NCBI GenBank assembly: GCA_964016885.1
Contig: OZ024747.1
Coordinates: 47,988,001-48,052,000, forward strand
Origin: Eledone cirrhosa
Lineage: Eukaryota
DNA length: 64,000 nt
Direction of reading: 5' to 3'
Shown: positions 35,688 to 43,274 of the stretch, piece after piece
Position numbering within the stretch: the first letter of the stretch is position 1
Layout: every line of letters starts with the position of its first letter
Made by a program: the position numbers and the translations under genes
The notes under the pieces: generated by a model
Seen by the model: the letters and a program-made list of their open reading frames with translations, nothing else
The model's database searches: none
What the model was told of the DNA's origin: nothing

Positions 35688-36598
35688 ATAATATAAGATC
35701 AAAAGATGGTTAAAGGAGTTCCATATATTTTATTATGCGCATTTCAAAAACAAACATCATCAAACAATAATATTTGTGTTTTCATCACATAAAACAGGAG
35801 AACATGTTATGAAGGCTAAAAAAACACTTGTTGATAGTGCAGTTTTAAATCAACATATGAAAAGTGGTTTTAGATTGATGTGTGATATTGGGAAAAATAT
35901 TTTATTTAGAGAGGGGGGGGAGAAAAGGATGAAAAGGGAAGGAGATGAGAGGGAGAGATGGGTGATAGAGAGAAAGAGATAGTTTTTATAACTGAGAGGA
36001 GATATATTTTATATAGAGGGGTTGAAAACCGTTGGAAGATACTGTATGAATTAAAAATTTTGAAAATTAACGAAGGGAGGATATGTGCGAGGAAAAAATA
36101 TTTTTTCCTCGCACATATCCTCCCTTCGTTAATTTTCAAAATTTTTAATTTATACAGTATCTTCCAACGGTTTTCAACCCCTCTATATAAAATATATCTC
36201 CTCTCAGTTATAAAAACTATCTCTTTCTCTCTATCACCCATCTCTCCCTCTCATCTCCTTCCCTTTTCATCCTTTTCTCCCCCCCCTCTCTAAATAAAAT
36301 ATTTTTCCCAATATCACACATCAATCTAAAACCACTTTTCATATGTTGATTTAAAACTGCACTATCAACAAGTGTTTTTTTAGCCTTCATATCATGTTCT
36401 CCTGTTTTATCTGATGAAAACACAAATATTATTGTTTGATGATGTTTGTTTTTGAAATGCGCATAATAAAATATATGGAACTCCTTTAACCATCTTTTGA
36501 TCTTATATTATGCATACTCCAGTCCCACAAACTGTAGAGTGCTTCTTATCCGATATCTGCATTGCTTTATTGTACTACAATAAAACTCACCTCCTACA
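35688..36598 (+). repeat. 824-bp spacerless palindrome (35688-36511) plus ~87-bp tail, copy 1
   Basis: Axis between 36099 and 36100 (ggaaaaaat|attttttcc); three arm mismatches found. Confidence 0.96.
36405..36471 (+). ncRNA. Type I hammerhead ribozyme motif
   Basis: uuuuau-CUGAUGA-aaac...uuuu-GAAA-ugcgca-UA-auaaaa. Predicted cleavage after 36465. Confidence 0.8.
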
Positions 36599-39071
36599 TA
36601 TATATATATATATATATACATATATATATATATACATATATATATATATATACATATATATATACATATATACATATATATATACATATATATATATATA
36701 TACATATATATATATATATACATATATATATACATATATATATATATATACATATATATATATATATACATATATATATACATATACATATATATATATA
36801 TATACATATATATACATATATACATATATATACATATATACATATATACATATATATATATATACATATATATATATATATACATATATATATATATACA
36901 TATATATATATATATACATATATATATATATACATATATATATATATATACATATATATATATATACATATATATATATATATACATATATATATATATA
37001 TACATATATATATATATACATATATATATATATATACATATATATATATATACATATATATATATATACATATATATATATATACATATATATATATATA
37101 TATACATATATATATATATATACATATATATATATATATATATACATATATATATATATGTATATATATATATATATATATATATATACATATATATATA
37201 TATGTATATATATATATATATATATATATATATATATATATATATATATATATGTATATATATATATATATGTATATATATATATATATATGTATATATA
37301 TATATATATGTATATATATACATATATACATATATATACATATATATATTTATACATATATATATATATATATGTATATATATATATATATATATATATA
37401 TATATATATATATATATATGTATATATATATATATATGTATATATATATATATATATGTATATATATATATATATGTATATATATATATATATGTATATA
37501 TATATATATATATGTATATATATATATATATGTATATATATACATATATACATATATATACATATATACATATATATATATATACATATATATATATATA
37601 CATATATATATATATACATATACATATATATATATATACATATATATATATATATACATATATATATATATATATACATATATATATATATACATATACA
37701 TATATATATACATATATATATATATATATATACATATATATATATATATACATATATATATATATATACATATATATATATATATATATACATATATATA
37801 TATATATATATACATATATATATATACATATATATATATATATATACATATATATATATATATATATATATATATATATATATATATATATATATATATA
37901 TATATATATATATATATATATATATATATATATATACATATATATATATACATATATACATATATATACATATATACATATATATACATATATACATATA
38001 TATATATATACACATATATATACATATATACATATATATACATATATACATATATATACATATATACATATATATATATATATATACATATATATATATA
38101 TATACATATATATATATATACATATATATATATACATATATATATACATATATATATACATATATATATATATACATATATATATATACATATATATATA
38201 TATACATATATATATATACATATATATATACATATATATATACATATACATATATATATACATATATATACACATATACATATATACATATATATACATA
38301 TATATATACATATATATATATATATACATATATACATATATATATACATATATACATATATATATACATATATACATATATATATACATATATACATATA
38401 TATATACATATATACATATATATATACATATATATATATATATATACATATATATATATATACATATATATATATATATATACATATATATATATATACA
38501 TATATATATATATATACATATATATATATACATATATATATATATATATACATATATATATATATATATACATATATATATATATATATACATATATATA
38601 TATATATATACATATATATATATATATATACATATATATATATATATATACATATATATATATATATATATACATATATATATATATATATACATATATA
38701 TATACATATATACATATATATACATATATACATATATATACATATATATATATATATATACATATATACATATATATACATATATATATATATATACATA
38801 TATATATATATACATATATATATATATATACATATATATATATATACATATATACACATATATATATATACATATATATACATATATATATATATATACA
38901 TATATATACATATATACATATATACATATATATACATATATATACATATATACATATATATACATATATATATATATATACATATATATATATATATATA
39001 CATATATATATATATATATACATATATATATATATACATATATATATATATATACATATATATATATATAT

Positions 39072-39982
39072 ATAATATAAGATCAAAAGATGGTTAAAGG
39101 AGTTCCATATATTTTATTATGCGCATTTCAAAAACAAACATCATCAAACAATAATATTTGTGTTTTCATCACATAAAACAGGAGAACATGTTATGAAGGC
39201 TAAAAAAACACTTGTTGATAGTGCAGTTTTAAATCAACATATGAAAAGTGGTTTTAGATTGATGTGTGATATTGGGAAAAATATTTTATTTAGAGAGGGG
39301 GGGGAGAAAAGGATGAAAAGGGAAGGAGATGAGAGGGAGAGATGGGTGATAGAGAGAAAGAGATAGTTTTTATAACTGAGAGGAGATATATTTTATATAG
39401 AGGGGTTGAAAACCGTTGGAAGATACTGTATAAATTAAAAATTTTGAAAATTAACGAAGGGAGGATATGTGCGAGGAAAAAATATTTTTTCCTCGCACAT
39501 ATCCTCCCTTCGTTAATTTTCAAAATTTTTAATTCATACAGTATCTTCCAACGGTTTTCAACCCCTCTATATAAAATATATCTCCTCTCAGTTATAAAAA
39601 CTATCTCTTTCTCTCTATCACCCATCTCTCCCTCTCATCTCCTTCCCTTTTCATCCTTTTCTCCCCCCCCTCTCTAAATAAAATATTTTTCCCAATATCA
39701 CACATCAATCTAAAACCACTTTTCATATGTTGATTTAAAACTGCACTATCAACAAGTGTTTTTTTAGCCTTCATATCATGTTCTCCTGTTTTATCTGATG
39801 AAAACACAAATATTATTGTTTGATGATGTTTGTTTTTGAAATGCGCATAATAAAATATATGGAACTCCTTTAACCATCTTTTGATCTTATATTATGCATA
39901 CTCCAGTCCCACAAACTGTAGAGTGCTTCTTATCCGATATCTGCATTGCTTTATTGTACTACAATAAAACTCACCTCCTACA
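39072..39982 (+). repeat. Palindrome + tail, copy 2 (HHR motif at 39789-39855)
   Basis: Offset +3384 from copy 1, essentially identical. Confidence 0.96.
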
Positions 39983-42363
39983 TATATATATATATATATA
40001 TACATATATATATATATATACATATATATATACATATATACATATATATATACATATATATATATATATACATATATATATATATATACATATATATATA
40101 CATATATATATATATATACATATATATATATATATACATATATATATACATATACATATATATATATATATACATATATATATATATATACATATATATA
40201 CATATATACATATATATACATATATACATATATACATATATATATATATACATATATATATATATATACATATATATATATATACATATATATATATATA
40301 CATATATATATATATATACATATATATATATATATACATATATATATATATATACATATATATATATATACATATATATATATATATACATATATATATA
40401 TATATACATATATATATATACATATATATATATATATACATATATATATATATACATATATATATATATATACATATATATATATATACATATATATATA
40501 TATACATATATATATATATACATATATATATATATATATACATATATATATATATATACATATATATATATATATATATACATATATATATATATGTATA
40601 TATATATATATATATATATATATACATATATATATATATGTATATATATATATATATATATATATATATATATATATATATATATATATATATATATATA
40701 TGTATATATATATATATATGTATATATATATATATATATGTATATATATATATATATGTATATATATACATATATACATATATATACATATATATATATA
40801 TACATATATATATATATATATGTATATATATATATATATATATATATATATATATATATATATATATATATATATGTATATATATATATATATGTATATA
40901 TATATATATATATGTATATATATATATATATGTATATATATACATATATACATATATATACATATATACATATACATATATATATATATACATATATATA
41001 TATATACATATACATATATATATATATACATATATATATATATATACATATATATATATATATATACATATATATATATATACATATACATATATATATA
41101 CATATATATATATATATATATACATATATATATATATACATATATATATATATATACATATATATATATATATACATATATATATATATATATATACATA
41201 TATATATATATATATATACATATATATATATATATATACATATATATATATATATATATATATATATATATATATATATATATATATATATATATACACA
41301 TATATATATATACATATATATATATATATATATACATATATATACATATATACATATATATACATATATACATATATATATATATACACATATATATACA
41401 TATATACATATATATACATATATACATATATATACATATATACATATATATATATATATATACATATATATATATATATACATATATATATATATACATA
41501 TATATATATACATATATATATACATATATATATACATATATATATATATACATATATATATATACATATATATATATATACATATATATATATACATATA
41601 TATATACATATATATATACATATACATATATATATACATATATATACACATATACATATATACATATATATACATATATATATACATATATATATATATA
41701 CATATATACATATATATATACATATATACATATATATATACATATATACATATATATATACATATATACATATATATATACATATATACATATATATATA
41801 CATATATATATATATATATACATATATATATATATACATATATATATATATATATACATATATATATATATACATATATATATATATATACATATATATA
41901 TATACATATATATATATATATATACATATATATATATATATATACATATATATATATATATATACATATATATATATATATATATACATATATATATATA
42001 TATATATACATATATATATATATATATACATATATATATACATATATACATATATATACATATATACATATATATACATATATATATATATATATACATA
42101 TATACATATATATACATATATATATATATATACATATATATATATATACATATATACACATATATATATATACATATATATACATATATATATATATATA
42201 TATACATATATATACATATATACATATATACATATATATACATATATATACATATATACATATATATACATATATATATATATATACATATATATATATA
42301 TATATACATATATATATATATATATACATATATATATATATACATACATATATATATATATAT

Positions 42364-43274
42364 ATAATATAAGATCAAAAGATGGTTAAAGGAGTTCCAT
42401 ATATTTTATTATGCGCATTTCAAAAACAAACATCATCAAACAATAATATTTGTGTTTTCATCACATAAAACAGGAGAACATGTTATGAAGGCTAAAAAAA
42501 CACTTGTTGATAGTGCAGTTTTAAATCAACATATGAAAAGTGGTTTTAGATTGATGTGTGATATTGGGAAAAATATTTTATTTAGAGAGGGGGGGGAGAA
42601 AAGGATGAAAAGGGAAGGAGATGAGAGGGAGAGATGGGTGATAGAGAGAAAGAGATAGTTTTTATAACTGAGAGGAGATATATTTTATATAGAGGGGTTG
42701 AAAACCGTTGGAAGATACTGTATAAATTAAAAATTTTGAAAATTAACGAAGGGAGGATATGTGCGAGGAAAAAATATTTTTTCCTCGCACATATCCTCCC
42801 TTCGTTAATTTTCAAAATTTTTAATTCATACAGTATCTTCCAACGGTTTTCAACCCCTCTATATAAAATATATCTCCTCTCAGTTATAAAAACTATCTCT
42901 TTCTCTCTATCACCCATCTCTCCCTCTCATCTCCTTCCCTTTTCATCCTTTTCTCCCCCCCCTCTCTAAATAAAATATTTTTCCCAATATCACACATCAA
43001 TCTAAAACCACTTTTCATATGTTGATTTAAAACTGCACTATCAACAAGTGTTTTTTTAGCCTTCATATCATGTTCTCCTGTTTTATCTGATGAAAACACA
43101 AATATTATTGTTTGATGATGTTTGTTTTTGAAATGCGCATAATAAAATATATGGAACTCCTTTAACCATCTTTTGATCTTATATTATGCATACTCCAGTC
43201 CCACAAACTGTAGAGTGCTTCTTATCCGATATCTGCATTGCTTTATTGTACTACAATAAAACTCACCTCCTACA
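42364..43274 (+). repeat. Palindrome + tail, copy 3 (HHR motif at 43081-43147)
   Basis: Offset +6676 from copy 1. Confidence 0.96.

Follow-up and report, generated by a model that had tools for sequence, protein, structure and literature searches.

Three tandem hammerhead-bearing palindromes in the Eledone cirrhosa genome: a probable local multiplication of a truncated Hydra-type Penelope-like insertion

Penelope-like elements (PLEs) are described as leaving inverted, truncated copies with a tail at one end (PMC8557442, PMC3846280). In the Hydra clade of these elements, DKG is changed to DKT, RWK is present, the linker has the form CxCX5C, CCHH is lacking, and CxxC and CxH motifs lie around a conserved E and N; a hammerhead ribozyme is carried in the pseudo-long terminal repeat (pLTR), and insertion is into (TA)n (PMC8557442). 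In the anole element PAc, the tail lies between two start sites of the reverse transcriptase (RT), both target strands are cut and extended, and uncut RNA is the main template (PMC11167929). PLE hammerheads have been found to be weak, even as dimers (PMC4209133), and animal retrozyme monomers measure 150-450 bp and are expressed (PMC7229834; preprint 10.64898/2026.07.22.740005). For Octopus vulgaris, recently active Penelope-like families have been listed, the Hydra clade not being named in the accessible part of that report (PMC13282606). Here we analysed a stretch of 64,000 nucleotides from Eledone cirrhosa (assembly GCA_964016885.1, contig OZ024747.1, positions 47,988,001 to 48,052,000; hereafter the window), in which three palindromes, each with a hammerhead motif, stand in tandem among TA microsatellites. 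An earlier note, made from the letters alone, had read this repeat as a retrozyme-like monomer.

We found that the unit is instead the truncated 3' end of an element of the Hydra type that bears an open reading frame (ORF). Most likely, each unit is a mirror-duplicated 3' end, consisting of 3' untranslated region (UTR), pLTR and an 86-nt tail, of an abundant element, the insertion having been copied twice locally, together with its TA tract, at the DNA level. The observed part of this explanation comprises the identity of the unit to the 3' end of copies that carry an ORF, the two fixed outer ends, the junction present at a single locus, the arm mismatches common to the units and the homology of the tracts. 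The parts of the array are as follows.

35688..36511: palindrome 1, in which 412 bp assigned to the 3' UTR and pLTR of a Hydra-type PLE are present twice, head to head
36405..36471, plus strand: type I hammerhead of unit 1, predicted cut after 36465
36512..36597, plus strand: tail of unit 1, 86 nt, element leader between two fixed end points
36598..39071: TA/CA tract T1, 2474 nt, a homolog of T2 and a more distant one of T0
39072..39895: palindrome 2, differing from unit 1 only in that the central mismatch pair is inverted
39789..39855, plus strand: type I hammerhead of unit 2, predicted cut after 39849
39896..39981, plus strand: tail of unit 2, 86 nt
39982..42363: TA/CA tract T2, 2382 nt
42364..43187: palindrome 3, same sequence as unit 2
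43081..43147, plus strand: type I hammerhead of unit 3, predicted cut after 43141
43188..43273, plus strand: tail of unit 3, 86 nt
43274..43313: short TA tract 3' of unit 3, 40 nt, followed by the 3' end of a long interspersed nuclear element (LINE)

All three palindromes are spacerless and 824 bp long, as had been claimed, and have their centres at 36099/36100, 39483/39484 and 42775/42776. In each, 409 of the 412 pairs are complementary (99.3%, far above chance for a palindrome of this size). The tail that the earlier note put at about 87 bp is present in every unit, although it measures 86 nt, and the TA/CA tract that the note assigned to each unit is long after units 1 and 2 but only 40 nt after unit 3, where the LINE begins. 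The array repeats with periods of 3384 and 3292 nt, 72-73% of which is microsatellite, and contains an internal inverted arm. The earlier note reported no coding capacity; an ATG frame of 111 codons does run across the fold (35958-36293), mirrored on the minus strand. Nothing suggests that this frame functions, no search having been made with it, and we rejected a coding function, regarding the frame as a by-product of the fold.

The identity of the arm was established from its relatives in the 3.0-Gb genome, which were counted with exact patterns. A 33-mer over the hammerhead had 10,292 exact matches (5171 on the plus and 5121 on the minus strand; control, 0), and the surroundings of the first 100 matches listed, all on contig 1, served as our sampled loci (L-numbers). 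Longer copies among them carry open frames of 738-821 residues immediately upstream of the same arm. For example, L031 has an 821-residue ORF followed by a long 3' UTR, the hammerhead, the tail and TA; in L049 the tail continues into a leader and the start codon of the ORF, as in intact copies generally, where the tail reads on into the ORF; and both L048 and L049 show a direct pLTR-ORF-pLTR arrangement. The element is about 3.7 kb long with an internally repeated 3' UTR, and the family is also present in contigs and restriction site-associated DNA (RAD) reads of other runs.

A homolog search yielded 25 relatives of 31-42% identity. The structure model of the ORF, built on 16 sequences, had a mean predicted local distance difference test score of 81, and Foldseek placed telomerase RTs at rank 1 (E 1.8e-7) and at ranks 3, 4 and 6; a PDB sequence search gave only a chance Cys-rich match. 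A GIY-YIG-like core, LIY...YFG, could be read from the alignment, along with RWT, DKT, a CxCX5C linker and C-terminal CxxC and CxH motifs, and no CCHH motif was present in the translation or the alignment. The form RWT occurs in P0001, RWK being the commonest form among the 15 relatives aligned. Residues ~601-676 of the L031 ORF form an Asn/Pro/Thr-rich insert of low confidence between the RT and the endonuclease linker, reminiscent of the N-rich inserts of rotifer Penelope elements.

Thus the features of endonuclease-bearing PLEs were found, namely an ORF with telomerase-related RT and GIY-YIG, direct and inverted pLTRs, 5' truncation and a tail at one end, as were those of the Hydra clade: DKT with RWT/RWK, CxCX5C without CCHH, CxxC and CxH, a hammerhead in the pLTR and insertion into (TA)n. 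Judged by its sequence, the arm represents the 3' end of a PLE that inserts into TA and has Hydra-clade motifs. Four points tell against this assignment: Pfam detected neither an RT nor a GIY-YIG domain in three ORFs; RVT_1 matched weakly (E 3e-4) in one of five relatives tested; the placement in the Hydra clade is based on motifs rather than on a tree and is to that extent provisional; and the length of 3.7 kb exceeds the under 3 kb typical of Hydra elements. We also considered a fold-back DNA transposon or miniature inverted-repeat transposable element and rejected it, because its ends would not be unequal as they are here and the arm belongs to the 3' end of an RT element. The earlier suggestion that a Penelope RT made the unit holds.

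The hammerhead motifs were called by pattern search on both strands and by folding, which recovered stems I and II. Each has a 6-bp stem I, CUGAUGA, a long stem II, GAAA, the palindromic stem III AUGCGCAU and an AUA triplet, and corresponds to the pLTR-type Penelope hammerhead with short palindromic stem III that had been recognised before; the pattern search likewise agreed with the type I motif reported in each right arm, its cuts and the spacing of 3384 and 3292 nt. Among the Rfam matches listed for the arm and for the whole window (for the latter, 150 of 734), no hammerhead family appeared. These matches were microRNA or small nucleolar RNA models below the gathering score, driven by the microsatellite and the hairpin, and a microRNA precursor was rejected, these matches being generic. 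In the sampled copies, the commonest variants were changes in loop II or conversion of a stem II U-G pair to U-A; the core is conserved there by construction, loci having been picked by a pattern over it.

The left arm carries a second copy of the motif, with a core change that abolishes cleavage in the anole element PAc (PMC11167929).

35728..35794, minus strand: second hammerhead copy, in the left arm of unit 1, C3G at 35788

The same C3G is present in all three units, at 39172 in unit 2 and at 42464 in unit 3. In a plus-strand transcript, 65 of the 66 motif bases are predicted to pair with the left arm, and the pairing is also predicted in a transcript prefix ending just past the motif; the calculated penalty for imposing the hammerhead fold is 91-94 kcal/mol within the unit as opposed to 7-10 kcal/mol in the right arm and tail alone. 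The warning in the earlier note that the left arm might sequester the ribozyme thus holds in silico, and the right-arm ribozyme is predicted to be sequestered inside the long hairpin. If transcribed, the unit would more likely give rise to a long hairpin RNA than to a monomer. These predictions bear on the retrozyme-like reading, in which read-through RNA would be cut into 3.3-kb monomers, possibly circular, that a Penelope RT would recopy as tandem arrays. The right-arm cores are intact and all in one orientation, and stem III could pair as a dimer (predicted duplex, -10.5 kcal/mol), as this reading would need, but the motif is predicted to be tied up by the left arm at the above cost, the minus-strand copy carries C3G, and the animal monomers are only 150-450 bp long.

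Within the sampled loci, the ends of the element fall at two sharp points. Among 109 distinct arms, 57 terminate at the short point and 51 at the long (tail) point, with a single arm ending elsewhere; TA adjoins 99 of the 109, and the ORF leader continues in 4 long-ended arms. Opposite arms were paired by hand within loci, 84 of the 109 forming 42 pairs, and the remaining 25 had no partner inside the fetched flank or were internal repeats. One long and one short end, matching the unit in the window, occurred in 39 of these 42 other inverted pairs; the three exceptions were one disrupted end and two large inverted duplications. An inverted arm plus tail is therefore the normal form of the family. 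The two large duplications (L036, 55-5001, and L045, 47-3301; 99.8% and 99.1%) have like ends on both sides and take in flanking DNA or the ORF, and are either secondary rearrangements or assembly fold-backs. Beyond the short end a hairpin of -8.0 kcal/mol with an A/C-rich loop is predicted, and beyond the long end one of -6.4 kcal/mol; the two are not clearly copies of one motif.

At the inner side, the junction in the window overlaps the reference by 10 self-complementary A/T bases in the 3' UTR, where both arms stop. Arms within one insertion were 97-100% identical in 14 of 14 pairs tested. An inner end 70 nt upstream of the core was observed in 35 of 86 arms, which belong to 21 of 43 pairs, and this point is possibly the 5' end of the transcript. 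The loci with this inner end include L002, L018, L028, L050, L055, L057, L065 and L066, among others, many of them mini-palindromes of 420-430 bp. All counted arms, which were selected for containing the motif, run past the predicted cut site. One 5.7-kb near full-length inverted insertion (L088, 881-6587; G000:C3 near 84.62 Mb), with one long and one short end, has C3G in both arms; this single case is consistent with both arms deriving from one ribozyme-dead RNA, the alternative being conversion between arms.

These observations suggest a first step in which the endonuclease of the element would cut a (TA)n tract, the RT would copy hammerhead-uncut RNA at both DNA ends, using a different one of two fixed start points, 86 nt from each other, at each end, and the two cDNAs would join head to head via the 10-bp self-complementary motif in the 3' UTR. 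A literature search for such a joined, two-end-primed cDNA model in Penelope yielded one review on human transposons, most subscription journals lying outside its coverage. Instead of two-ended priming, the palindrome might stem from one cDNA that snapped back and primed itself at the 10-bp motif, a mechanism proposed for Penelope elements of rotifers, with later duplication as in our explanation. This possibility counts to some degree against ours: the junction is symmetric and lies on a naturally self-complementary motif, palindromes at inverted junctions are taken as self-priming in PMC3846280, and the 97-100% identity of arms is predicted by either model. However, the outer end of the second arm lies at a fixed point 86 nt inside that of the first in 39 of 42 pairs, an offset that matches the two RT start sites and the cutting and extension of both strands seen in vitro with the anole element (PMC11167929), and arm lengths are unequal in many pairs, so that we regard snap-back as unlikely.

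The number of units is a separate matter from the origin of one. The flanks of the array are the following.

30160..33312: TA/CA tract T0, the distal half of which (about 31760-33300) is an older homolog of T1 and T2
33311..35601, minus strand: LINE copy a, 5'-truncated, left flank of the array
35602..35687: TA tract before unit 1, 86 nt, resembling the last tokens of T1
43311..44612, minus strand: LINE copy b, 99.7% identical to copy a

A 42-mer over the palindrome junction occurs at 3 places genome-wide, all within this array; the genome-wide search of the unit proposed in the earlier note, made here with this exact junction pattern, thus showed no dispersal of the 3.3-kb repeat. All three units have the three arm mismatches in common, and the counts of these in the sampled loci were 0 versus 28, 0 versus 92 and 2 versus 134 (locus-strand counts, overlaps included). 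C3G was the only one found in sampled copies, at one other locus, and its 33-mer had 18 matches genome-wide, 3 of them in the array. T1 and T2 aligned with 146 of 170 tokens exact (score 396; maximum of shuffles, 29), and T0 scored 80-81 against T1 and T2 (shuffle maxima, 42 and 33), compared with 9-32 for five other tracts. Together, the single-locus junction, the common arm mismatches and the tract homology indicate that one insertion was likely multiplied at the DNA level. LINE copy a, which we take from RT motifs and a short-repeat tail to be RTE-like, has in common with copy b a variant at 44509 that was found in 0 of 8 other copies covering the site, and copy b is likely part of the same local duplication as copy a. 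Hence the duplicated material extends beyond a hammerhead-to-hammerhead monomer, which again points to DNA-level events.

This evidence also bears on the retrozyme-like reading. Rolling-circle copying from the tail end would yield repeats of tract and palindrome ending in a truncated tract, as observed, but the single-locus junction leaves no donor or daughter copy in this assembly, and T0, like the duplicated LINE piece, falls outside any monomer bounded by two hammerheads. We found neither short head-to-tail monomers nor a dispersed family, nor, in silico, a foldable hammerhead in each unit, and we consider this reading highly improbable.

Several points weaken the case for local duplication in vivo. 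The two LINE copies might have inserted independently of each other, their subfamily being young (a 40-mer has 2,940 exact matches, and copy b differs from other copies at 0-51 positions by mismatch); three deletions of a single G and one substitution are found in copy a but in neither copy b nor the other covering copies, which suggests locally poor base quality; and three is the copy number of the assembled sequence. The RT frame of copy a (33311-35601) is broken in three. Wholly or in part, the triplication might be an assembly artefact, in which one or two genomic copies of the same element were laid out three times. Palindromes and TA tracts of several kilobases can mislead the overlap and polishing stages, assemblies are known to have difficulty with complex PLE insertions (PMC8557442), units 2 and 3 have one and the same sequence, unit 1 differs by a central flip that reads inside the palindrome could not orient, and the private single-G deletions lie in the left flanking LINE. 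On the other hand, whole blocks have been gained or lost between T1 and T2, with 24 of 170 aligned tokens inexact; T0 is a far more diverged homolog, which speaks for repeated real duplications at the locus; and the junction from tail to tract start requires a tandem neighbour. An artefact is therefore, in our opinion, improbable. No piece spanning the array was present among the contigs and RAD reads of other runs. At 100% identity, four sets of contigs left the private C3G site or the region past the fold uncovered; gaps of this kind prove nothing and were counted on neither side. Among the first 100 matches listed, same-strand neighbours 3-4 kb apart were either the intact pLTR-ORF-pLTR arrangements (L048, L049) or L050, which has two palindromes with different junctions.

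Local duplication of one aged insertion thus remains our preferred reading; the block and tract, and probably the LINE piece as well, were likely repeated after the insertion had aged, in vivo or possibly by the assembler. After the first step described above, three point changes would have arisen in the palindrome; recombination or template switching among TA tracts would then have repeated the segment of tract, palindrome and tail with the adjacent LINE piece, the palindrome centre being inverted once on the way; and the resulting array would be inert, its read-through RNA forming a 412-bp hairpin that buries the ribozyme. For the family as a whole, we tentatively propose, at somewhat less than even confidence, that it records PLE integration, with both (TA)n ends priming on one uncut RNA 86 nt apart, the inner stop 70 nt upstream of the core marking the 5' end of the transcript and young palindromes being able to seed local tandem amplification by way of TA tracts.

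The window appears to consist almost wholly of retroelement pieces and microsatellite, and contains a run of 200 N at 16752-16951. Further LINE RT fragments lie among TA tracts at 44771-46379, 28715-30157 and 16952-23390. An older single-arm copy of the element of the array, 88% identical to it, is located at 47430-47942 on the minus strand; it sits in TA, has the tail and retains an intact hammerhead motif. A fold-back-plus-tail element distinct from that of the array lies in TA at 5686-6203; it has a palindromic stem III and hammerhead-like cores at 5955 (plus strand) and 5791 (minus strand) and likely represents another Penelope-like family. Two more fold-back-plus-tail elements in TA, at 9901-10328 and 50747-51144, are without a CUGANGA core and possibly represent hammerhead-less PLE types; the former also flanks L028 and L076 and is thus dispersed.

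Since the tandem hammerheads are best explained by a Penelope-like insertion and a local repeat, the array is an ordinary transposon footprint rather than a new ribozyme-driven mobile RNA. It combines the known insertion pattern of a Hydra-type PLE with a local repeat and is of little significance as a single locus, although it cautions that tandem genomic hammerheads alone do not define a retrozyme. The value lies in the family, which offers thousands of young copies, two sharp ends, a fixed inner stop, arms from one template and an apparently intact ORF. It is a natural data set on how PLEs form inverted copies and on whether the hammerhead must cut, both of which were left open in the accessible parts of PMC8557442, PMC11167929 and PMC3846280.

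Compared with described systems, the family shares with the Hydra-clade PLEs (Craig et al. 2021, PMC8557442) one ORF that combines an RT with a GIY-YIG-type domain at the C-terminus, DKT, CxCX5C, CxxC and CxH without CCHH, the pLTR hammerhead, the (TA)n target and an inverted copy that is truncated at its 5' side and tailed at one end. It differs from them in having RWT for RWK, a length of ~3.7 kb, a repeated 3' UTR and an Asn-rich insert, and its tail is 86 nt as opposed to the 30-40 nt given for PLEs generally; moreover, the window has only non-coding stumps, locally triplicated. With PAc, a Poseidon element of Anolis carolinensis (Frangieh et al. 2024, PMC11167929), it has in common the two fixed ends bounding the tail, the AT-rich target, the inactivating C3G and what appears to be an uncut RNA template, whereas PAc belongs to the Penelope/Poseidon clade and its ORF starts within the hammerhead, the start codon here lying ~85 nt past the end of the tail. 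The Penelope families of Adineta vaga (Arkhipova et al. 2013, PMC3846280) likewise have head-to-head inverted pLTRs, junction palindromes, an optional tail and an Asn-rich ORF insert, but their copy number is low, and tandem amplification of TA tracts is not described in the accessible text on them. Finally, animal non-LTR retrozymes (Cervera and de la Pena 2020, PMC7229834; Li et al. 2026, 10.64898/2026.07.22.740005) resemble the array in their tandem type I hammerhead units, short palindromic stem III and origin from PLE pLTRs; theirs are units of 150-450 bp, head to tail, dispersed and expressed, whereas the array has a period of 3.3-3.4 kb, is 72-73% microsatellite, contains an inverted arm predicted to bury the ribozyme and occupies one locus.

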